Origin: an uncultured Candidatus Saccharibacteria bacterium
GTDB lineage: Bacteria > Patescibacteriota > WWE3 > UBA101185 > UBA10185
Assembly: GCA_964574405.1 (NCBI GenBank)
Contig: CAZNNN010000003.1
Coordinates: 11,035-54,680, forward strand
Length of the DNA stretch: 43,646 bases
Reading direction: 5' to 3'
Shown: positions 2,909-41,049 of the stretch, piece by piece
Layout: each line of letters begins with the position of its first letter
How positions within the stretch are numbered: position 1 is the stretch's first letter
The notes under the pieces: generated by a model
The model's database searches: none
Told to the model about the DNA's origin: nothing
The model's input: the letters and a program-made list of their open reading frames with translations, nothing else
Made by a program: the position numbers and the translations under genes

Positions 2909-5114
2909 CAGGCGTTCCAGGCTTGGTTAACGGCTCTTGAACAACCGGAGCTTTTGGTGCGGTAGTTCCAGCCTTTTCAAGGGCTTCCACGCTTGGTTTA
3001 GCTTTTGCTTCCGCATCTGCCGTTTCAGCAATTAGTTTGTTAACCGCTTCTAGATCCAAAGCTACTTGTTTATAATCTGGACTATCTTTTTCCACCAAAC
3101 TTTGTGCCACTTCAAATTCAGCCTTTGCGTCGGTATAGGCTTTAAGTTTAAACAGGGAATAGGCTAGGTTATAGCGAGCATTAGCATAGTCGCTCTTAAG
3201 ATTAACCGCCTGCTTAAACAAATTACCAGCAGATAAGTAATCTTCCTTGGCAAAATAAATTCCGCCCAGCTCTACGCGTAAAACAGGGTTAGTTGGGTCA
3301 AGCTGAATGGCGGTGTTGTAAGCCTGAATAGCAAATTGATCTGCATCTTTGGCTGCTGGAATTAAGAATTTGTAAATTTGTGCTCTGGCTACCCAGTTTG
3401 CACTGTCAAGAGGATTTAGAGTTTCAGAAGCAAATTTAATGTTTCGTAACGCCTGTGCCAAAAGATTTTGAGCGGTGGTTTTTTCTTGGTCGCTCAAGTC
3501 CTGTTTGGAGCTTAAGGATTGTGCTAACGCCAAATTAGTGTCGGCATAAATCCTATGATACTCGCTCCTTTGCGCATTAATAGAAATGGCTTTTACTTGG
3601 TAGTCGTACGACTTGGAGACATCCTGCTTGGAGGCCGAGGTTATAGCTTTGCGCATGTAGTACTCTGGCGCGTACTGTAGGTAAGCTTGGTATATGCCAA
3701 ACCCTGCCAACGCCAAAATAGGAATAGATATGATATATTGTAACAATTCTTTTTTAGCTAAAATAGGACTTTCTATAATGCTGACGCCTTCGGAGTCGGT
3801 GCGTGATTCCAAAGAAAGTGTCCACAATTTAGCCCATGATTTGTTAGTATTTAACGCCGATTCTGCTGTTAAAAGTCCCATTAAAGTAAACATAAGAAAA
3901 GCCAGTTGAAAGCTGGTGTAGCCCAGCAGTAGGGCAGTAAGTGAGGCTATAAGCCCAGCAGAAAGCACCACAGAAAGTCCTTTATACGCGTCGTTAACCT
4001 TAATAGATTTAAATGCCAATCTAATAAGGGTAGAAATTAAGGCAAGATATGCCAAAAGTCCAAAAATACCCAGCGTAGAGATGATGTTAAAGACCTCATT
4101 GGCTGGTTTGTCAAAATTAACATTCCAAGTGGGGGTATAGTTTTGGCTAAGCGTTTTGTATCTAGGGTAATTTAGATGAAAAGTACCTACACCCGAACCA
4201 AAAATGGGGAAATCACGCAAAGTGGTGGACGACACAATCCACGATTCTTGTACGGAGGGCAGAACTTCTTTTGGGTAGGCTCTCTGCAGAACGAACCTTG
4301 TTTGTGGAACTATAAAAAACAACGCTATAAAGGTTACTAACGCTCCTACAGCAGGAAAGAGGTACATTTTACTTTTAGCCACGCTTTCACTGGGTGACTT
4401 TAACACCATAAGTCCTGCCAGCAGGGTAGCCCCTGCTGTAAAAGCTACACCGCCAAAAACCGCCAGAGCTACAAAGTCTAAAATAGAGATAGCTAAAGTT
4501 ACGCTTTTTTTAACGGGCGATTTCATGTTAATTGTTAACGAGGCGCTAACTATTAAACCCACCAGTAAGGATGTGGCAAGGCTAGTACTAGACCCGGCAA
4601 GAAGAAAACCCCTTTGATTAAACAGATGCAAAAAGGGGATGGTGAGCCCGTAGTAATTTACCAGGGAAAGTAAAGCTGGAACGGCTGTTCCTACTGAAAT
4701 GCCCCACAAAACTACTCTTATTTTTCTTGCCGAGTCTACATTGGTTGAGACCGCGTAATAGTAAAAGTAAAGGGCAACAAACCCAAATAGGCTAGGAAAC
4801 CAGCGTCCATAAGAGCCAAACAGGCTAGAAGTTTTATCTAGGGAGGTTACAGCGGAAAGGATAAAGCTTACTAACACAAGAAGTAACGCAAAATCCACTG
4901 GCGATTTAGTAAAGTAAACTTTCTTTTCGACTATCATTTTGGCGCACCAAAGTACTGCCATAGCTACTGTGGCTGCTACAAAAAAGTAAAGCTTGTTAAA
5001 TTCAAAGTACTCGTAGGTTATGGGTAAAAAGAATATTGGTGTTAAAAATGTTACCAACACAATTAGCCCAAATATTAAGTTGTTAAGTTTGTCCAGGACA
5101 GTATTTTTGTTCAT
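2898..5114 (-). CDS. Polytopic O-antigen ligase/polymerase-like (Wzy_C-type) membrane protein with C-terminal TPR repeats
   Basis: More than 10 hydrophobic helices in the N-terminal 480 aa. The C-terminal 250 aa carry TPR-like repeats (AIQAYNTAIQLDPTNP, NLFKQAVNLKSDYANARYNLAYSLFKLKAY). The 3' end overlaps the convergent ATPase gene by 11 nt. Confidence 0.7.
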   Translation of the reverse strand: MNKNTVLDKLNNLIFGLIVLVTFLTPIFFLPITYEYFEFNKLYFFVAATVAMAVLWCAKMIVEKKVYFTKSPVDFALLLVLVSFILSAVTSLDKTSSLFGSYGRWFPSLFGFVALYFYYYAVSTNVDSARKIRVVLWGISVGTAVPALLSLVNYYGLTIPFLHLFNQRGFLLAGSSTSLATSLLVGLIVSASLTINMKSPVKKSVTLAISILDFVALAVFGGVAFTAGATLLAGLMVLKSPSESVAKSKMYLFPAVGALVTFIALFFIVPQTRFVLQRAYPKEVLPSVQESWIVSSTTLRDFPIFGSGVGTFHLNYPRYKTLSQNYTPTWNVNFDKPANEVFNIISTLGIFGLLAYLALISTLIRLAFKSIKVNDAYKGLSVVLSAGLIASLTALLLGYTSFQLAFLMFTLMGLLTAESALNTNKSWAKLWTLSLESRTDSEGVSIIESPILAKKELLQYIISIPILALAGFGIYQAYLQYAPEYYMRKAITSASKQDVSKSYDYQVKAISINAQRSEYHRIYADTNLALAQSLSSKQDLSDQEKTTAQNLLAQALRNIKFASETLNPLDSANWVARAQIYKFLIPAAKDADQFAIQAYNTAIQLDPTNPVLRVELGGIYFAKEDYLSAGNLFKQAVNLKSDYANARYNLAYSLFKLKAYTDAKAEFEVAQSLVEKDSPDYKQVALDLEAVNKLIAETADAEAKAKPSVEALEKAGTTAPKAPVVQEPLTKPGTPVTP

Positions 5115-5206
5115 GGTCTAACAATTACATATCGCAAAGAGTTTGTCAAGGGGTATTTTCCCGTAACGGTAGCAAGGTATAAATGTTGTAACAACGGGAC
5201 TTTCTT

Positions 5207-5872
5207 CTAATTAGAGATCCACCAGCTAAATTCTGCATCGTAAGAAGTTGGGGCGTCCAGTTCTAGATAAAAGCCTTCAAAAGGAACCTTAGAGGAAATC
5301 CAATATCTTACCGCGGGGGAATAGTTTTGATTAAAGGTAATGTTTATTCTGGAATTAAGTTTTACGCTTTCACTTTTAATATACACTCTGCTTTGATCCT
5401 TTGGCACATAGGTGGTACCACTATCGGTAAGGTATTTTTTATCTAGCTCCAAAGTCCTTTTAATTAAATCTGATTTTGACTTGCCAATAGGTAAAAAGCC
5501 CAAACCAGCAAAAACCGTGAGGCAAAAAAGAACAAAGAGGGTTATTTTTAGTATTTTAGGAGAGGGAGTTAAGATTCTTGCTACCTTTATAGCATTAGCT
5601 CCGGTGTTGGCAGAAAGCCCCCGTATTTTTTTGGCCACTGCCTCGTTACTTAAGCCCAAACCTTTAAGTTTTTCAATTTCTAAAAGGGTATCCATGGCGG
5701 AAGCAGGATAATGGCCTGTTACCTCACTGCCGTTAACTTTTCTTTGCATGTGAGGCAAAAGCCCTAGTTTGGTGTAGTATCTTAACCGATTATAGGGATC
5801 GCCCTTGCCAAAGTCTACCCCTTTTTTTACCGCCAGTTCAATAAATTTTTCTATCGAGAGTAATTCTTCCAT
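5207..5872 (-). CDS. Membrane-anchored MerR-like HTH protein (N-terminal HTH, one TM helix, about 90-aa extracytoplasmic domain)
   Basis: The N-terminus NRLRYYTKLGLLP resembles the MerR recognition-helix region. The hydrophobic helix is ITLFVLFCLTVFAGLGFLPI. TATAAT lies on the minus strand at 5887-5892. Confidence 0.55.
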   Translation of the reverse strand: MEELLSIEKFIELAVKKGVDFGKGDPYNRLRYYTKLGLLPHMQRKVNGSEVTGHYPASAMDTLLEIEKLKGLGLSNEAVAKKIRGLSANTGANAIKVARILTPSPKILKITLFVLFCLTVFAGLGFLPIGKSKSDLIKRTLELDKKYLTDSGTTYVPKDQSRVYIKSESVKLNSRINITFNQNYSPAVRYWISSKVPFEGFYLELDAPTSYDAEFSWWISN

Positions 5873-5895
5873 AGTTTTATGCCCGCATTATACTA

Positions 5896-5925
5896 AATTC
5901 TAGTTAAACTAGAGAATACCATCTT
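5896..5925 (+). promoter_or_regulatory. 30-nt conserved element with dyad TCTAGT-N3-ACTAGA upstream of dprA (copy 1)
   Basis: aattctagttaaactagagaataccatctt matches 11595-11624 at 26/30 positions in the same orientation. Confidence 0.5.
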
Positions 5926-5939
5926 TACAAAGCTTTTTA

Positions 5940-6881
5940 ATGGGCTACATTTTCACCATGTTTAAGGATGCACAAGTTAGGTCAATAGATCGCTCATCGG
6001 TACAGTACCCAAAGCTGTTAACGGAAATACCTGACGCACCAAAGACGCTGTATTATTTGGGCGACTTTAAAGAGTCGCTTTTTAAAAACACTTTAGCAGT
6101 GGTAGGGAGTCGTGCGGTTACCTTATACGGCGAATGGGTGGTAAATAACCTTGTTAAAGAGGTAGCCCGCCAGGGTATAACAATAGTATCGGGCTTTATG
6201 TATGGGGTGGATGCGCTGGCTCACAAAGCGGCTTTAGAGGTGGCAGGTTCAACTATTGCGGTTATGGCTGGAGGCGTAGATCAGATTTTTCCTAATTATC
6301 AGGAGCAACTTTATTGGGACATTGTAGCCAAGGGTTTAGTGGTTTCTGAATTTTACAAAGAACCTGAATTGGGAAATTGGATGTTTGCTAAGCGCAACCG
6401 TATTGTAGCGGGGCTTTCTCACGCTACTTTAGTAGTGGAAGCGGCGGAAAAAAGTGGCTCGCTCATTACCGCTTGTTACACTAAGGAGTACGGCAGACAA
6501 CTCTTAACAGTACCCGCTAATTTAAATTCCAAAAATGCTGTTGGTACCACACAACTGTATAGAGGTGGGGCAAAGATGGTTACCTGTGCGGACGATATTC
6601 TAGCATTATTTTCGTATAATTACCGCGTTAATATTTCTGATGCGGTAAATAGGCGGTTATTATTAGGAGAAGCCGATGGGGATGCTCGGCAAGACGAAAA
6701 CCCGCAGTATCAGGTTAACAGTCCAGAAAATATTTTAAATCTGCTTAAGTTGGAATCGCTAAGTGCGGACGAAATCACTTTAAAGTTAGGTATTTTGTCG
6801 TCAGATGTCCTTAAATATCTTACTGGATTAAGTTTGCAGGGGCAGGTGGGGGAGAAAGGCGGGCGGTATTATGCTTGTTAA
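5940..6881 (+). CDS. dprA: DNA processing protein DprA (Smf)
   Basis: Rossmann-like DprA motifs: VVGSRAVTLYG, GFMYGVDALAHKAAL, IAVMAGGVD, RNRIVAGLS, VVEAAEKSGSLITA. Possible alternative start at 5958. Confidence 0.9.
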   Translation: MGYIFTMFKDAQVRSIDRSSVQYPKLLTEIPDAPKTLYYLGDFKESLFKNTLAVVGSRAVTLYGEWVVNNLVKEVARQGITIVSGFMYGVDALAHKAALEVAGSTIAVMAGGVDQIFPNYQEQLYWDIVAKGLVVSEFYKEPELGNWMFAKRNRIVAGLSHATLVVEAAEKSGSLITACYTKEYGRQLLTVPANLNSKNAVGTTQLYRGGAKMVTCADDILALFSYNYRVNISDAVNRRLLLGEADGDARQDENPQYQVNSPENILNLLKLESLSADEITLKLGILSSDVLKYLTGLSLQGQVGEKGGRYYAC

Positions 6882-8400
6882 GGTTAAGTCAGCCTATTTT
6901 TTTGGGATTGAGACCTTTGATGTTGATGTGGAGGTAAATATTTTAGATCGCAGTATGCCTGGCTTTGAGATTGTGGGCTTAGCGGGTAGGGAAGTAGTAG
7001 AGAGTAGAGAAAGGGTAAAAAACGCCATTATTAACGCTTTTAATGAATTTCCACACGGAAAAAAGATTGTAATAAATTTGGCGCCTGCCGATGTGCCAAA
7101 AGAAGGAGCTTACTACGATTTACCCATTGCGGCATCAATTATTAGCTATATGAAAGAGTTCACCTTTCCAGCGGACAGTGCTTTTTTTGGCGAAGTCTCC
7201 ATGGACGGAAATGTTAGAAAAACCAAGGGGGTATTTTTGTTTGTTACTTTTGCAAAAGAGAATGGTCTAAATAATGTATTCATTCCAAGTTCTTGTTACG
7301 AGGAAGTGAGGGGTATTAAGGATGTAAATATTTATCCAATTTCTAATTTGCGCGATTTACTAAATTATAATACTATTCGCCACGACGATTATATTTGTAG
7401 CGGAGAAAAATCTGTTTCCCGTAATCAAGATGGTCGTAATGAAGTGGACTTTAGCGATGTGATTGGGCAAGATATGGCAAAGCGAGCTTTAGAGATTTCC
7501 GCTTGTGGCGGACATAATATCTTAATGACCGGTAGTCCCGGTAGTGGAAAGTCCATGCTAGCCAAGGCACTCTGTTATATTTTACCTAACCTAGGATCAC
7601 AAGAAGTTACCGAAGTTGCCAAGATTTATTCTGCGTGTGGGGTTTTTGATCCCAATATTTTTACGCACAAGTTTAGACCTTATAGAAATCCACATCACAC
7701 CATAAGTTATTCCGGAATGGTGGGCGGGGGACTCATTCCTCGTCCAGGGGAGATAAGTCTTGCTCACAAGGGTGTGTTGTTTTTGGACGAGTTTTCTGAA
7801 TTCCCCTCTTCAATAATTGAGTGTTTGCGTCAACCCATGGAAGATGGCTCTATCACCATAGCTCGCAGTAGGGGAAGCGTTAAACTTCCGTGTGATTTTA
7901 CACTAGTGGCGTGTTCCAACCCCTGCCCGTGCGGTTTTGCTGGCGAGAGAAAAACGGCGTGTACCTGCAAACCTCCGGATATAGCCAGATATAAAAAGAA
8001 ACTTTCAGGTCCAATTTTAGATAGGATAGATCTTTTTGTGCGGGTTTGGAATCCAAGTTTAGATAAAATTATTGGCGCAGAGGCTTTTCTCAAGTCGCAA
8101 GAAAAGGTGTCCCCCAAGATAAAAGAGCGGGTAGAAGCTGTGCGACGCATTCAGGAACAAAGGTTTAAGGACGATGGGATAACTGTAAACGCCAGAATGC
8201 CCAATACTTTAGTAAAAAAATACTGTCAATTAAATTCGTTGTGCGGAGATTTGCTAGATAAATCAGTGCAAAAATATAACTTATCGCCTAGAAGTGTATA
8301 CAAAGTTATTAAGGTAGCCAGAACTATTGCGGATATGGAAGGCGTTCCTACAATAACCGTATCCCATCTAGCGGAGTCGATTCAATATAAAAATATATGA
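6871..8400 (+). CDS. comM: ComM/YifB family Mg-chelatase-like AAA+ ATPase (competence helicase family)
   Basis: N-terminal Lon-protease-like domain, Walker A GSPGSGKSMLAKAL, Walker B VLFLDEFSEF, Cys cluster CSNPCPCG, C-terminal Mg_chelatase_C-like region. Overlaps the dprA stop. Confidence 0.9.
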   Translation: MLVKVKSAYFFGIETFDVDVEVNILDRSMPGFEIVGLAGREVVESRERVKNAIINAFNEFPHGKKIVINLAPADVPKEGAYYDLPIAASIISYMKEFTFPADSAFFGEVSMDGNVRKTKGVFLFVTFAKENGLNNVFIPSSCYEEVRGIKDVNIYPISNLRDLLNYNTIRHDDYICSGEKSVSRNQDGRNEVDFSDVIGQDMAKRALEISACGGHNILMTGSPGSGKSMLAKALCYILPNLGSQEVTEVAKIYSACGVFDPNIFTHKFRPYRNPHHTISYSGMVGGGLIPRPGEISLAHKGVLFLDEFSEFPSSIIECLRQPMEDGSITIARSRGSVKLPCDFTLVACSNPCPCGFAGERKTACTCKPPDIARYKKKLSGPILDRIDLFVRVWNPSLDKIIGAEAFLKSQEKVSPKIKERVEAVRRIQEQRFKDDGITVNARMPNTLVKKYCQLNSLCGDLLDKSVQKYNLSPRSVYKVIKVARTIADMEGVPTITVSHLAESIQYKNI

Positions 8401-8505
8401 CATAAATTGTAACTAACACAAATAAATAGTAGCGGGGATACAAATATTACCCAAAACTGATTAATGGGTATTGACATTTTCCCCGTACGCGGTATTATGC
8501 TTGGT

Positions 8506-8808
8506 ATGATGAATTTTGTAAAAATTTCCAAAGCAATGTCCGACAAGAACAGGCTTAAAATCTTGGAGATGCTCTCCGAGAATGAGCAAAAAGTTGGAGT
8601 TGTGTCCGAAAAGCTTGGAGTAGAGGAAAATCTTGCCTCTCACCATCTTAGAGTCCTTTCTGGACTTGGCTTTTTAAAGAGCGATAAGAGGGGGAGGGAA
8701 GTGTACTACAAGCTAAATACCCCAAAGATAGTGTCTTTGTTGGTGGACCTCCAAAAGAACAGTGCCTTTAAGGCTATCTTGCACGAGGCTGTTGCTGAAG
8801 TGAAATAA
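8506..8808 (+). CDS. ArsR/SmtB-family winged-HTH regulator
   Basis: KAMSDKNRLKILEMLS...VGVVSEKLGVEENLASHHLRVLSGLGFLKSDKRGREVYYKL. The ORF track starts at 8464, but TTGACA(8471)-16-TATTAT(8493)-7-ATG(8506) lies inside that extension, so the likely start is 8506 (or 8497). Confidence 0.75.
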   Translation: MMNFVKISKAMSDKNRLKILEMLSENEQKVGVVSEKLGVEENLASHHLRVLSGLGFLKSDKRGREVYYKLNTPKIVSLLVDLQKNSAFKAILHEAVAEVK

Positions 8809-11381: not shown

Positions 11382-11418
11382 GGGGGGATTTTAACTCTTT
11401 TTTTTGACATAGGCAACT

Positions 11419-11534
11419 GCGTTAATTATGCGGTGTATAGTTGCTAATTATTAACGCGTAATAAACGAACCGAGACTACTTATGCGTTAAATAGCAGGTT
11501 TATACGGTTATATGACCACGCATTATTAACGCAT
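11419..11534. repeat. Four copies of an ATTATTAACGC-like motif in alternating orientation in the leuS/comEA intergenic region
   Basis: gcgttaattatgcg (11419-11432, reverse), attattaacgcg (11447-11458), atgcgttaaat (11482-11492, reverse), cattattaacgcat (11521-11534). Confidence 0.55.
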
Positions 11535-11594: not shown

Positions 11595-11624
11595 AATTCT
11601 AGTGATACTAGAATATACCATCTT
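11595..11624 (+). promoter_or_regulatory. 30-nt conserved element with dyad ATTCTAGT-N3-ACTAGAAT upstream of comEA (copy 2)
   Basis: aattctagtgatactagaatataccatctt is 26/30 identical to 5896-5925 and contains a TAGAAT -10-like hexamer. Confidence 0.5.
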
Positions 11625-11735
11625 GTAACTTTTTAAACCTGTGGTATTTTGCAAGTGCAAGACTCCACTGTAATTTTAGGAGACGAGCAAAAGAGGAAGC
11701 CGAGGACGCAGTCCGAGGCTTCTCATTTATGAAGC

Positions 11736-12491
11736 ATGTTTGAAGACCAGTCGTCAAAAATTTATGAAACTTTGGTAGACAAAGTAAACAACCTTTTTGT
11801 TAAAAAGCCTTTAGTTTCAACGGTTGCTATAAGTGTTGTAGTAAGTTTGGCGGTTTTGTTTATATCTATGGATTATAGAAAAGGGGAGGCTAAGGTGGAG
11901 ATTTCGCAAGATAATTTGGTTGCAACGGTTGCAGAGTTAGGTAGTATAGAAATAAAGGTAGACTTATCCGGGGCGGTAAAAAAGCCCGGGGTGTATACGG
12001 TGGATGCAAAAGCTCGCTTGATTGATTTACTAGTCTTGGGTGGGGGATTTGTAAGCGATGTAAGCTCTTTGTGGGTAAGTAAAAATCTTAATTTGTCGCA
12101 AAGTTTAGCGGACGGAGAAAAGATTTATATCCCGTTTGAGTGGGATATAGATGGGGTTGGTGAGGGTGAGGCGGACTTAAAACCCCTAAGTTTAGGAATT
12201 GTTAAGGACACTAAGCAGGAAGATCTGGTGGCAGGGGCGCTCAAGATTATGGGAGTGAGTAATGTGCCCGTGGAGTCTTCTAGTTCCGCTGTTTCTTCTA
12301 TTTCCACGCAAAATAAGATCAACGCTAATACTGCGCCAACATCAGATTTAGACCTATTGCCAGGCATCGGTCCAGCCTATGCGGGAAGAATTGTAGAGAA
12401 TCGCCCGTACGCGTCGTTTGAAGAGTTTAAAACAAAAAGTGGGTTATCAGCTAATCTAGCTGATAGTCTCAAAGATCTGTTGTCCTTTTAG
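11736..12491 (+). CDS. comEA: ComEA-family DNA receptor (TM anchor, SLBB-like domain, C-terminal helix-hairpin-helix)
   Basis: N-terminal TM (VAISVVVSLAVLFI), KKPGVYTV SLBB-like motif, HhH LLPGIGPAYAGRIVENRPYASFEEF. Confidence 0.8.
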   Translation: MFEDQSSKIYETLVDKVNNLFVKKPLVSTVAISVVVSLAVLFISMDYRKGEAKVEISQDNLVATVAELGSIEIKVDLSGAVKKPGVYTVDAKARLIDLLVLGGGFVSDVSSLWVSKNLNLSQSLADGEKIYIPFEWDIDGVGEGEADLKPLSLGIVKDTKQEDLVAGALKIMGVSNVPVESSSSAVSSISTQNKINANTAPTSDLDLLPGIGPAYAGRIVENRPYASFEEFKTKSGLSANLADSLKDLLSF

Positions 12492-12497
12492 AGTGTT

Positions 12498-13565
12498 ATG
12501 AAAACCAAGGTGTTTATTTTGGCCACTTTGCTGGCGTTTTGGCGAGTTGGGGAGTTTGTTGCTTGGCAGAGTAAAACATTTATTAACAAGTTTAGTAATG
12601 ACATGGAATACACTTACCAAGCGCCTGTGGATGAATGTGCATCTGGGCAGGGGATATATTGTGGGTTTAAAGTGGCGTCGGGTAGGTTTAGGGCAAAAGC
12701 ATCAGATAAAATACAGCAAGTTTTACCTAGTCCGCACAGCGAACTTGTGATGGGGATGGTTTTGGGAGAAAATCGGTTTAAACAAGTTCCCACATATAAC
12801 GACATCCTCAAGACCGTGGGGCTGGTGCATGTGGTGGTGGTTTCCGGTTACAATATTAGCTTGGTGTTTACTTTATTAATGCGCTTGTTAGGTTCGCAAT
12901 ACAAAGTTAAAAACTTAATTATCGGTTTGTTTTGCACTTTTATATATTCGGGAATTTCGGGATTTGGCGTGCCCGCAGTTAGAGCCTGGATCATGGGCTC
13001 CATCGCGGTAATCTTTAAATTTTATGGTCGACCTGTCCAAGGCATAAAGGTTCTTATAGTTTCTGCCATAGTCATACTATGTACAGCCCCCAGCCAGCTG
13101 TTTTCAGTGAGTTTTTTGTTAAGTTTCTTGGCAACCTTGGGCGTAATGGTTGTTCCTGAAGCCTTAAAGGGTATATGGGGTTTGTTGGGTATTAAGAGCA
13201 GGGCAGGACTTTTTGAGGATTTTAACACCAGTTTAAGCGCGCAGTTAATGGTAAATCCAGTTATTTCGTATTATTTTGGTACTATGAGCGTGGTGTCCTT
13301 GATAGTAAACCCGCTAGTTTTGTGGGTAGTGCCTTTGTGTACAGTTTTAGGTGGGGTTTTGGTGTTTACGGCTTTTGCAAGTCCCCTGTTAGCTAAAATA
13401 ATAGCTTTGGTGCTGTATCCCTTTTTGGACTTTTTTGTAATCTTTTCGGAATTTTTTTCTGGCTTTAAAACGGCGTCACTGCAGATTAGATTTAGTTTTT
13501 ACGGTATAGTGGCTTATTATATTTTGTTGCTCCTTGGGATAAAATTATTTAGGAGAAAGCCGTGA
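12498..13565 (+). CDS. comEC: ComEC/Rec2 membrane channel (Competence domain) without its own beta-lactamase domain
   Basis: Polytopic membrane protein with motifs typical of the ComEC competence domain (GLVHVVVVSGYNISL, GFGVPAVRAWIMG). Confidence 0.8.
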   Translation: MKTKVFILATLLAFWRVGEFVAWQSKTFINKFSNDMEYTYQAPVDECASGQGIYCGFKVASGRFRAKASDKIQQVLPSPHSELVMGMVLGENRFKQVPTYNDILKTVGLVHVVVVSGYNISLVFTLLMRLLGSQYKVKNLIIGLFCTFIYSGISGFGVPAVRAWIMGSIAVIFKFYGRPVQGIKVLIVSAIVILCTAPSQLFSVSFLLSFLATLGVMVVPEALKGIWGLLGIKSRAGLFEDFNTSLSAQLMVNPVISYYFGTMSVVSLIVNPLVLWVVPLCTVLGGVLVFTAFASPLLAKIIALVLYPFLDFFVIFSEFFSGFKTASLQIRFSFYGIVAYYILLLLGIKLFRRKP

Positions 13566-14314
13566 AGCTTTTTCCCTACGCTGTTTTTATAGTAGGCTAC
13601 TACCTAATACGGATGTTGGTTCTACTGCCTCAAGACAGCAAGTTTTACATATCTTTTTTGGATATCGGGCAGGGGGATAGTTTTGTCATAAATATTCCTA
13701 ATTATGGGAGGGTTCTGGTGGATACCGGACCCGATTATCAGTCAAATTATCTAACTGCTAGAAGTTCGGTTTTGCCAATTTGTAATATAAAAGCGGTATT
13801 TATTACACATTATGACAGCGATCACGCGGGTGGTTTGGGGAGAATTAGCAGATTTTGTCCCAGTATAACTATTTACGACGATTTAAAGTTAGGAGATACG
13901 CTGGGTTTTGGTAGTACAAAAATGTATGTTTTAAGTCCCCCAGATAGAAACCCACTCCGGGATATAAACGATAACTCCCTTGTAATGCTGGTAAAATATC
14001 ACGATTTTGAGGCGTTACTTACTGGGGATGCTGGTTTAAGCATGCTTGAATCGGTAGGTAATATTGTTAACATCTACAAAAATAAAGAGATAATTACAGG
14101 CGGTCTTGATGTCTATAAAGTGGCACATCACGGGTCCAAGTATAACAGTAGTAAAAACTTGATTGAGGCGTTAAATCCTGCGCATTGCATAATTTCTGTG
14201 GGTAAAAATAATTACGGGCATCCCAGTAAAGAAGTTGTTCAATATTTGGTTGATGCGGGGTGTAAGGTGCAAAGAACCGATCAGGACGGCACAATTACTT
14301 TCATTGGCAGATAG
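13562..14314 (+). CDS. Metallo-beta-lactamase fold protein, equivalent to the ComEC C-terminal domain, encoded as a separate ORF
   Basis: N-terminal TM, then LDIGQGDS, THYDSDHAGG, TGDAG, VAHHGS, GHPS motifs. The GTG start overlaps the stop of the previous ORF (GTGA). Confidence 0.8.
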   Translation: MKLFPYAVFIVGYYLIRMLVLLPQDSKFYISFLDIGQGDSFVINIPNYGRVLVDTGPDYQSNYLTARSSVLPICNIKAVFITHYDSDHAGGLGRISRFCPSITIYDDLKLGDTLGFGSTKMYVLSPPDRNPLRDINDNSLVMLVKYHDFEALLTGDAGLSMLESVGNIVNIYKNKEIITGGLDVYKVAHHGSKYNSSKNLIEALNPAHCIISVGKNNYGHPSKEVVQYLVDAGCKVQRTDQDGTITFIGR

Positions 14315-39558: not shown

Positions 39559-41049
39559 TTAGATAAACTCCGTATGTCTTGCGCTTACTACGCCTAGTAG
39601 TCCGTTAAAATCGGTGGACGACTCTATTATGGTATCTACACGCTTTTTGTAATCAGCGTTGGTGTTATAACTCCCCACGATTTTGCTAATTTGTTTGCCA
39701 ATGCCCTGCGGATCCTGTTCCTTAAAGACCTGACTCCAGATTAAGGTAAAGATAAATATCTGGAGATTGGTGTTTAAAACTTCTCCAGAGGCTTGATTAA
39801 AGAAACCATTGATAATTTTTTCACCCATAAGCAGAGTAGATTTAATACCCTCACTTATTTCTGCGCCAAAGTGCACAAAGTTTTGGGTTTTTTCCAGTAA
39901 GGATAGAAAATTTGATAGCTCTCTGCCTACCGACCACTTTAATTTTGTTTGTGTTTGTCTGCCTACTCGGGTAACGGATAGAAAGTAATTAACTGCAGGT
40001 CTTCTACCTTGCAGAAATAGGTCTTTATCAAAGAAAATGTGTCCGTCAGTAATTGACATCAAATTAGTTTGAATGTAACCCGTAATATCGCCCTCCACAG
40101 TTTCTGCTATGGGTAAACAGGTAAGGGCATGGATGCCTTTGTTAGTCTTAAAGTAGCCAGACCTTTCCAATAACCGCGAATGAGCGTAAAAGATGTCTGC
40201 CGGATAGGAAGCACGACCTGGGAAGCGTTTAGCTATGAGGGACATTTCTCGGTAATATTTGGCGTGATCTGTCATATCGTCCAGAATAAGCAAAACATCG
40301 TTGCCCGTTTCCATAAAGTACTCGGATATAGTCATGGCGGAATAGGGAGTTAGATAGACAATAGCGGAGGGATCGGAGGAATAAGAAGCCACAATAACAC
40401 ATTTATCCTTAATTTTGTTAGTGGCAATAAACTTTTCTATTTTTTTAATGTCCAAAGCGTTTTTACCTATCCCGGCGTAAACGCAAAGTGTTCCTTGTTT
40501 GGCTTGATTTAACATAGTTTGTAGGATAAAGTCGGTTTTTCCAGTTTTTCTATCGCCTATCACTAACTCCCGTTGCCCCTTACCCAGGGGAACTAACATG
40601 TCAACCACTGACACGCCGGTTTCAAGGTACTGATTGATTTTAACCCTTTTTTCGATGCCTGCCGGTTTTGGATCAATTGGTAAGTACCTTTCTGGTACAA
40701 ACTCCTCAAGCTCCTTATACATGTTCTGGCCTAGCGGATCTACGGTGTGTCCAAGAAGATAGATTCCTACACCAACTTCTAGTTGGCAGTTGGTTTTGCA
40801 AACCCTTTCACCAATGCTGGGTGGGTTGTGTGACAGCAAAACAATATCCACAGTATTTTCATCCATAGACATAGTTTGTCCGATAACGCCACTTTCAAAT
40901 AAAATAACTTCTCTAGGTTTAACCGTAGGGAGTCCGCGCACCTTGGTGATAGGATAATTTAGGCTTTCCACATAGCCAACTTCATTAGTTTGATCCAAAA
41001 ATCGGGTAAAATCTTCTTGCGTGTAGTTTTTATAGCCGTACTTAAGCAT
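39559..41049 (-). CDS. atpA: F1 ATP synthase alpha subunit
   Basis: GDRKTGKT P-loop, LLILDDMTDHAKYYREMSL, PGRASYPADIFYAHSRLLER. Confidence 0.93.
   Translation of the reverse strand: MLKYGYKNYTQEDFTRFLDQTNEVGYVESLNYPITKVRGLPTVKPREVILFESGVIGQTMSMDENTVDIVLLSHNPPSIGERVCKTNCQLEVGVGIYLLGHTVDPLGQNMYKELEEFVPERYLPIDPKPAGIEKRVKINQYLETGVSVVDMLVPLGKGQRELVIGDRKTGKTDFILQTMLNQAKQGTLCVYAGIGKNALDIKKIEKFIATNKIKDKCVIVASYSSDPSAIVYLTPYSAMTISEYFMETGNDVLLILDDMTDHAKYYREMSLIAKRFPGRASYPADIFYAHSRLLERSGYFKTNKGIHALTCLPIAETVEGDITGYIQTNLMSITDGHIFFDKDLFLQGRRPAVNYFLSVTRVGRQTQTKLKWSVGRELSNFLSLLEKTQNFVHFGAEISEGIKSTLLMGEKIINGFFNQASGEVLNTNLQIFIFTLIWSQVFKEQDPQGIGKQISKIVGSYNTNADYKKRVDTIIESSTDFNGLLGVVSARHTEFI

Follow-up and report, generated by a model that had tools for sequence, protein, structure and literature searches.

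Two operons for DNA uptake, dprA-comM and comEA-comEC, in an uncultured bacterium of the WWE3 lineage of Patescibacteria are each preceded by a copy of the same 30-nucleotide (nt) element. We analysed this element in a 43,646-bp stretch of contig CAZNNN010000003.1 (the window, to which all coordinates without another label refer) and in loci taken from relatives, which carry L-numbers (L019, L045, L055 and so on; RIFCSPHIGHO2_01_FULL_43_9 is L057). The element contains a 15-bp dyad, is conserved upstream of four families of competence genes, is restricted to competence promoters with the exceptions taken up below, and stands at a fixed position relative to the promoter. With a probability of about 0.6, we read it as the cis-regulatory module of a WWE3 competence regulon, in which an upstream operator, acting as an activator site, would be joined to a promoter. 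It is from sequence comparison that we infer the binding of a protein, its activating effect and its possible identity. The dyad core TCTAGT-N3-ACTAGA, which extends to ATATTCTAGT-N3-ACTAGAATAT in the best copies, would be bound by a dimeric transcription factor, and such a regulator would switch on dprA-comM, comEA-comEC, comF and radC jointly.

Two copies in the window and their counterparts in relatives

Copy 1, aattctagttaaactagagaataccatctt, lies at 5896-5925 on the plus strand before dprA-comM, and copy 2, aattctagtgatactagaatataccatctt, at 11595-11624 on the plus strand before comEA-comEC. They are identical at 26 of 30 positions, both point at the gene downstream, and an independent repeat search recovers them as a 30-nt direct repeat of 87% identity. 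The sequences, coordinates, match and orientation given in a preliminary description, made by a model from the letters of the window, are thus all correct. The dyad of copy 1, TCTAGT-TAA-ACTAGA (5899-5913), is a putative regulator site with its centre at 5906, or -52 from the ATG at 5958. It is followed by an asymmetric promoter-proximal extension, ATACC (5916-5920, plus strand), which is kept in several WWE3 lineages, not all. The dyad of copy 2, TCTAGT-GAT-ACTAGA (11598-11612), forms with its flanks a perfect 8-3-8 palindrome, ATTCTAGT-GAT-ACTAGAAT.

The pattern TCTAGT-N3-ACTAGA-N2-ATACCATCTT, with up to three mismatches allowed, matches twice in the 43,646 bp, at copies 1 and 2, and finds no match in 100 dinucleotide-preserving shuffles of the window. 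Neither the bare 12-base dyad (two mismatches allowed) nor the ATACCATCTT tail is significant in the window by itself; because each part alone is not significant, it is the combination of dyad and tail that is non-random. With a weight matrix of 25 columns, derived from 22 related sites, the two copies reach 32-33 bits. The next match in the window, their own reverse strands aside, reaches 18.7 bits (TTTTCTATCCTTACTGGAAAAAACC, 39886-39910, minus strand); this match is intragenic, in the open reading frame (ORF) 39559-41049, and is probably due to chance. Pattern scan and matrix therefore agree with the earlier statement that the window holds no other full copy. Avoidance of CTAG was considered as a cause of the rarity of the motif and rejected, the window containing 126 CTAG against 136 expected.

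Gene calls based on Pfam and NCBIfam identify, in order, a MerR_1 helix-turn-helix (HTH) protein, dprA, comM, an ArsR/SmtB-type protein, leuS (on the minus strand), comEA and a split comEC. The operon behind copy 1 (5958-8400, plus strand) consists of dprA, with a corrected start at 5958 and its end at 6881, and comM (6871-8400). Behind copy 2, comEA (11736-12491, plus strand) is the first gene of an operon that runs from 11736 to 14314, in which comEC is divided into an ORF for the Competence domain (12498-13565) and one for the metallo-beta-lactamase domain (13562-14314), both on the plus strand; the same split between channel domain and metallo-beta-lactamase ORFs occurs in L055 and L057. 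These are the sole competence operons among the approximately 39 genes of the window, and both are preceded by the element. By family profiles the remaining 30 or so genes serve translation, glycogen metabolism, sortase, NusG and similar functions, and none is a competence gene.

Following a suggestion in the preliminary description, we searched one genome per species, across 185,579 species, for the exact pattern TCTAGT-N3-ACTAGA-N2-ATACC, in which 18 bases are specified. This gives 17 matches, about the random expectation for 18 specified bases. Ten are scattered over unrelated phyla with no common context, and seven fall in metagenome-assembled genomes (MAGs) of WWE3/Patescibacteria, a group that by a rough estimate accounts for well under 0.1% of the scanned bases. 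Each of the seven lies between genes and faces a start codon 18-116 nt away. Five of them adjoin genes that Pfam assigns to competence: comEA in UBA1401 and in GW3_51, the spacer between dprA and the MerR-like gene in NC_groundwater_383, and both comF and radC in Bin_101. The comEA gene that carries the element in UBA1401 comes directly after comM and an ArsR-like gene. Several linked operons in one genome share the element: dprA, comEA and two others in UBA1401, comF and radC in Bin_101, and dprA, comEA and comF on the Ga0376277 contig. A scan of metagenome contigs with the same pattern returned 27 loci, nearly all random in unrelated GC contexts, and no new sites; the sole useful locus, L045, is from the same MAG as L012 and gave extra downstream flank.

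Beyond the exact matches, we tabulated 22 sites in 13 genomes, upstream of dprA (seven genomes), comEA (five), comF (four) and radC (four). The element precedes comF in all four genomes examined, three of them beyond the scan match, and one of these three is on the same 819-kb contig as a close relative of the window; it precedes radC in four of four, again with three beyond the scan match. Homologues of the MerR-like protein at 75%, 61% and 46% identity are each divergent from dprA-comM with a TPR gene behind, and each of these spacers between the MerR-like gene and dprA holds a dyad of the same type. When comEA loci are aligned, the upstream flank is scrambled between relatives, and a conserved block begins at the dyad and takes in the -35 and -10 boxes; the dprA alignment has the same footprint. 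Conservation upstream of dprA, comEA, comF and radC orthologues thus persists in relatives whose intergenic flanks have diverged.

The two halves of the dyad change together. Perfect palindromes extend up to 10-3-10 (L019, L022), a symmetric variant, TCTATT-N3-AATAGA, stands before dprA in L059 and before comF in L063, and in RIFCSPHIGHO2_01_FULL_43_9 both sites carry the same two substitutions, giving TCTAC-N5-CTGGA. Symmetric changes, and changes shared by both sites of a genome, would be expected of a protein-binding site that co-evolves with its regulator. The element therefore has what one looks for in a regulon operator: it recurs at linked operons, is conserved with orthologues, has dyad symmetry with co-changing halves and holds a fixed position at the promoter.

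The same data bear on the possibility that the similarity has no function and reflects chance, a small mobile repeat such as a miniature inverted-repeat transposable element (MITE), a DNA-uptake sequence or the leftover of a promoter duplication. In its favour are the mere two copies in the window, the frequency of short palindromes in AT-rich intergenic DNA and the lack of significance of the bare dyad when two mismatches are allowed. The shuffles, which never produce the full pattern, speak against chance, and the element has neither terminal repeats nor target duplications. There are no further copies in the 43.6 kb of the window, and each relative locus of about 20 kb has two, with no other repetition in those flanks. 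WWE3 species genomes hold one to three exact copies each, so that the motif does not behave as a generic repeat or MITE. It also recurs at four gene families in 13 genomes with unrelated spacers. DNA-uptake sequences occur in hundreds to thousands of copies per genome, whereas here there is one element per com operon. We regard a non-functional origin as effectively refuted.

Some other repeats and dyad-like strings were seen on the way. The leuS-comEA spacer of the window contains, at 11417-11534, four copies of TTAACGCRT in alternating orientation, which include all three exact matches in the window, and similar repeats occupy the same spacer in L045, L055 and L057. Inside the comF coding sequence a dyad-like string, TCTATTTTAACTAGA (L063 6409, L065 6460, L061 6250), encodes a conserved S-I-L-T-R; it lies about 550-600 nt downstream of the upstream dyad and is probably a coincidence of codon usage. 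In L069 a dyad with one mismatch, TCTAGTTTAGCTAGAATAT (4743-4757), stands at the end of rplQ, 26 nt before rplM, with no promoter behind it.

Promoter architecture and leaderless starts

When the sites are anchored on the dyad, a common architecture appears in all but one or two of them: the 15-bp dyad, a 10-nt gap, the -35 box, a spacer of 16-17 nt, a -10 box of the form TAnnnT, 6-7 nt and the start codon. The dyad centres lie at about -52/-53, counted from the first base of the start codon. Of the 22 sites, 16 have a gap of 10 nt between dyad and -35 box and three have one of 9 nt, made up for by an 18-nt spacer; the -35 hexamers seen are TTGAAA, TTTACA, TTGTAA and TTTCAA. The comEA sites of GW3_51 and UBA1401 were misplaced by the automatic parse and, read by hand, both fit the 10-nt gap. 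Both sites of RIFCSPHIGHO2_01_FULL_43_9 parse at a 9-nt gap, the comEA one being ambiguous and aligning with a deletion. On the gene side of the dyad the gap reads ATATACCnnC in the clade of the window, in UBA1401, in Bin_101 and at the radC sites, and it is T-rich in other lineages. In an information profile the two half-sites stand out, as do the ATATACC tail and the TT of the -35 box; the dyad columns are inflated because the sites had been selected on the dyad. The tail that the preliminary description had attached to the dyad survives in part: its ATCTT is the start of the -35 region, and its ATACC belongs to some lineages only.

In the dprA promoter of the window the -35 box TTTACA (5924-5929, plus strand) begins 10 nt past the dyad and is followed, after a 16-nt spacer, by the -10 box TACATT (5946-5951, plus strand). 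Because this conserved -10 box sits 6 nt before the ATG at 5958, inside a mis-called 5' end, dprA almost certainly starts at 5958 and not at 5940, the start of an over-extended ORF. The divergent spacer between the MerR-like gene and dprA, previously given as 67 bp, is corrected to 85 bp in consequence.

The comEA promoter has its -35 box TTGTAA at 11623-11628, again 10 nt past the dyad, and its -10 box TATTTT at 11645-11650 after a 16-nt spacer (both plus strand). Between this -10 box and the start codon is a lineage-specific insertion of 85 nt (11651-11735, plus strand) with a stable hairpin, GAAGCCGAGGAC-GCA-GTCCGAGGCTTC. The insertion also carries AGGAG and turns a leaderless comEA into a leadered gene. 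It is not present in relatives, where comEA is leaderless from a GTG or ATG at the canonical distance of 38 nt; in L045 and L055 this is a GTG 38 nt after ATACC. Copy 2 had been placed 112 nt upstream of comEA; it does end far from the gene, 111 nt before the ATG, and the distance is due to this insertion. That the insertion is itself a repeat or MITE was rejected, as no second copy is found in the window or in the loci retrieved from relatives.

Leaderless starts extend beyond the competence genes. Operon-first genes of the window with TAnnnT 6-7 nt before the start include leuS, argS, sortase neighbours, glycosyltransferases, an M50 peptidase and the ArsR-like gene, internal genes having a GGAGG-type Shine-Dalgarno sequence instead. 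The background rate of TAnnnT at 6-7 nt before any start-like triplet is 4.4%. The full leaderless pattern, TAnnnT at this distance and no Shine-Dalgarno sequence, is found at dprA, at radC, at comEA of the relatives and at housekeeping operon-first genes. Because the -10 box sits 6-7 nt before the start codon, the mRNAs would be leaderless, and operon-first genes of this lineage appear to be routinely so, with starts placed from promoter-like hexamers and the leaderless pattern. A generic promoter scan of the window gives 15 sites, the dprA promoter among them, with 15.3 expected; because this is no better than chance, our promoter calls rest on comparative geometry.

comF differs from the other operons in having a conserved leader, about 100-130 nt long. 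In L023, L061, L063 and L065 the leader has two ACTATRGG repeats right after the -10 box and GTGGATAAC directly before the ATG. This shared stretch has no Rfam match and could represent either an RNA element of the leader or a binding site for a protein. Searches of the window and the comF loci with Rfam found only tRNAs, transfer-messenger RNA (tmRNA) and glmS, none of them over the element or the comF leader.

The geometry also bears on a quite different reading of the element, in which the right arm and tail, CTAGAATATACC, are the -10 element of a ComX-like alternative sigma factor, the transcripts begin about 37 nt before the start codons and the palindrome is there by accident. In streptococci the cin-box or combox is the -10 element recognized by the sigma factor ComX and marks late genes such as dprA, comEA/EC, comF and radC. 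The element in WWE3 marks the same types of gene, and its right arm TAGAATA resembles the cin-box TACGAATA, from which it is one base off in our own comparison. TAGAAT is a good -10 hexamer with no conserved -35 box upstream of it, and at the radC sites the right arm and ATATACC are better kept than the left arm. The WWE3 string differs from the cin-box in lying at about -45, as half of a palindrome with a full sigma-70-type promoter behind it. Such a -35/-10 pair is present at every site, at the housekeeping leaderless distance, and a 37-nt leader with no Shine-Dalgarno sequence would be atypical in this organism. The left half-site is strongly kept and changes symmetrically with the right (TCTATT/AATAGA), and the lineages of L059, L061, L063 and L065 do not keep TAGAAT/ATACC and retain dyad and spacing. 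We consider a ComX-like -10 element very improbable.

A shared operator/promoter module, as originally proposed, is supported by the genome scans, by the orthologous sites and by the geometry. One part of that proposal changes: the dyad lies 10 nt upstream of the -35 box and does not overlap the promoter, covering neither the -35 box, the -10 box nor the start site of the com promoters. We favour activation because a dyad that is rigid and fixed in helical phase at non-homologous promoters, just upstream of the -35 box, has the geometry of a site whose ligand contacts RNA polymerase.

Candidate regulators

The first candidate is a membrane-anchored MerR-type protein (5207-5872, minus strand) encoded divergently from dprA. 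An AlphaFold2 model (pLDDT 83.7) comprises a winged HTH domain at residues 1 to about 88, a transmembrane helix at 105-124 and an extracytoplasmic beta-sandwich at 148-220, and it has neither the long C-terminal coiled-coil dimerization helix nor a cytoplasmic effector domain. The Pfam match to MerR_1 (E = 1.6e-5) is above the cut-off, and the RxYY signature is present as NRLRYYTK, invariant in 36 homologues. In Foldseek searches, where the matches are weak (best E = 1.1e-3), the N-terminal domain resembles BmrR, CueR, HiNmlR, MtaN and GlnR, the GlnR-DNA complex 4r4e being among the matches, and the C-terminal domain resembles tailspike receptor-binding and lectin-like modules. Against PDB sequences the protein has only insignificant MerR matches (E about 0.5). 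All named members of a set of 303 full-length homologues are from WWE3 or Patescibacteria, and the family seems to be restricted to WWE3, as is the motif. Residues 118-221, the C-terminal domain, are 29% identical to the C terminus of a 955-amino-acid ORF in L059 (24-2891; the called gene has 962 amino acids).

The MerR-like gene is divergent from dprA in eight of nine lineages, with the dyad over its own promoter region; in the window its -10 box TATAAT (5887-5892, minus strand) is 6 nt from the dyad. This layout resembles that of an autoregulated activator.

The second candidate is an ArsR/SmtB-type winged-HTH protein (8506-8808, plus strand). Its ORF begins at 8464, and its likely start is the ATG at 8506 because a near-consensus promoter, TTGACA-16-TATTAT (8471-8498), falls inside the annotated 5' end. 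The gene lies between comM and comEA in five of seven loci by BLAST, and also in the P0096 lineage. A 15-nt string, GCGGTATTATGCTTG, is common to the start of comM (6863-6877) and the start of the ArsR-like gene (8489-8503).

A third candidate is found at radC, where a gene for an XRE-family HTH protein of 93-109 amino acids is divergent from radC in four of four genomes (L027 5071-5400; L067-L069, about 5650-5940), with the dyad lying across the predicted -10 box and start region of the XRE-like gene.

Among these, the MerR-like protein is our leading candidate, put forward tentatively. It is quite conceivable that the regulator is another protein altogether; the ArsR-like protein is unlikely, and the XRE-like protein the least probable of the three neighbours. 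The MerR-like protein might form a circuit by itself, sensing an extracellular cue, binding the dyad, repressing its own gene and activating dprA-comM, comEA-comEC, comF and radC, a scheme that we offer as speculation. The cue could be, for example, a glycan on the surface of a host or partner cell, detected through the lectin-like beta-sandwich.

The presence of ArsR-like and XRE-like genes raises the question of whether the same regulon operator is instead bound by a repressor, for example one of these two proteins, that keeps the com promoters off until a signal arrives. Such a repressor could block contacts of the C-terminal domain of the RNA polymerase alpha subunit or of the UP element, or could oligomerize over the -35 box. 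ArsR/SmtB and XRE proteins are typically repressors that act on palindromes, so that both neighbours belong to usually repressing families; the ArsR-like gene is part of the com cluster at the frequency given above, with a promoter that looks constitutive, and the com core promoters are reasonably good unaided. In the divergent spacers, moreover, the promoters of the MerR-like and XRE-like genes have the dyad over their -35/spacer or -10 region, a repressing position for those genes. At the com promoters, however, the dyad is 10 nt upstream of the -35 box and clear of hexamers and start, which is unusual for simple steric repression, and the constancy of its spacing at promoters that are not homologous suggests a stereospecific contact with RNA polymerase. 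Apart from the coincidence in the comF coding sequence, a second operator that could support looping is not seen, and the ArsR-like gene is not in the cluster in L059/L060 and L020, where the dyad is present. We therefore regard repression of the com promoters as a serious but rather unlikely alternative to activation.

Several observations weigh against an activator-bound competence operator and its leading candidate. The com core promoters are not clearly weak, matching 8-10 of 12 consensus positions, so that an activator is not required. Two of the seven WWE3/Patescibacteria scan matches, both in UBA1401, precede genes with no known competence role, one for a secreted protein with a signal peptide and no Pfam match (L019 2-418) and one for a Y1_Tnp (IS200-like) protein ahead of gyrB (L022 1908-2492); these may be extra members of the regulon. 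The motif has drifted in some close relatives, to TCTAAC/ACTAGA and TCTAGG/GCTAGA in L055 and with loss of ATACC in L057, and the conservation of ATACC looks inflated, 9 of the 22 sites having been found by a pattern that contains it. In L070 the MerR-like gene is not beside dprA and still has the TPR gene behind it. A different dyad, TCCCGT-N-ACGGGA, lies on the far side of the MerR-like gene, 8-10 nt ahead of TTGACA, the -35 box of the TPR gene (window 5159-5171, with one mismatch; L045 2112; L016 4947; L055 10701; L070 10734). It is kept in the six other lineages checked, in degenerate form in L055, L057 and L020; it could be another operator, the true target of the MerR-like protein or a small terminator hairpin. 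Finally, the MerR-like and ArsR-like proteins keep their recognition helices unchanged across genomes whose dyads differ, and because neither helix varies, co-variation of helix and half-site does not choose between the two.

Comparison with known competence systems and implications

The preliminary description had stated that the element is unlike the ComK box, the cin-box and the CRP-S site, and none of the three patterns is found upstream of dprA or comEA. CRP-S (TGCGA-N6-TCGCA) has no match there within two mismatches, the cin-box none within one mismatch, and the ComK box (AAAA-N5-TTTT) none at all, its one weak match in the window, at 2538, being unrelated to com genes.

The closest functional parallel is nevertheless CRP-S. 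The CRP-S regulon of Sxy/TfoX and CRP in Haemophilus influenzae, Vibrio and Escherichia coli comprises dprA, comM, comEA/comE1, comEC/rec2, comF and radC. There, too, a palindrome, of about 22 bp, precedes nearly the same gene set, and a dimeric activator binds it, as we propose for WWE3. The WWE3 motif differs in its unrelated sequence, its 6-3-6 core, its leaderless promoters and its phylum, and its regulators are candidates. The ComK box of Bacillus subtilis is an activator site beside the -35 box with fixed helical phasing, composed of two AAAA-N5-TTTT AT-boxes that are bound by a tetramer. The WWE3 dyad is like it in that it, too, stands directly before the -35 box of competence promoters and keeps a fixed phase; the window has no evident homologue of ComK.

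Should the MerR-like protein be the regulator, it would not be expected to work as a classical MerR protein does. In classical MerR promoters the dyad lies within a spacer of 19-20 bp, whereas the com spacers are 16-17 nt (18 in some) and the dyad is upstream of the -35 box. TnrA and GlnR are winged-HTH proteins of a MerR branch with no coiled coil, which activate in the ordinary way, from palindromes that precede promoters of normal spacing (PMC6191146). Because the MerR-like protein has no coiled coil and the com promoters have no long spacer, it would, if it is the regulator, recruit RNA polymerase as TnrA and GlnR do, through a winged HTH with no long helix and with no twisting of the spacer (PMC6191146). 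It differs from them in having a transmembrane helix and a beta-sandwich rather than a tail that senses glutamine synthetase, and their motif is TGTNAN7TNACA.

In its domain order the candidate resembles membrane-bound regulators of Vibrio. TfoS and ChiS, which are ToxR/CadC-like one-component regulators in the membrane, induce competence there, and they share with the MerR-like protein a cytoplasmic DNA-binding domain, a single transmembrane helix and an extracytoplasmic sensor domain. The fold of the DNA-binding domain is MerR-type and not OmpR/AraC-type, there is no homology, and a role of the MerR-like protein in competence is suggested by its gene neighbourhood.

Natural transformation in Patescibacteria was first shown experimentally in 2023, in Saccharibacteria, in a study that left open the extent of active competence across the group and did not discuss its regulation (PMC10633639). 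Full-text literature searches for competence regulation, in WWE3 and in Patescibacteria at large, turned up no paper. Competence regulons as such are familiar; what the element would add is a new operator motif with a new promoter architecture, in a phylum for which no such regulon had been known. If the one-protein circuit proposed for the MerR-like protein is true, it would be the first regulatory circuit described for natural transformation in Patescibacteria.

The routine occurrence of leaderless operon-first genes matters for the annotation of gene starts in this lineage. Future genetic work on these bacteria could use the promoter and operator as inducible expression parts. What induces competence in organisms not yet grown becomes an approachable question with a 23-bp probe, a promoter of defined architecture and three candidates for the regulator, of which one has a predicted extracellular sensor domain. 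The shared operator argues that DNA uptake, at least in WWE3, is a co-ordinately controlled programme and not constitutive housekeeping.

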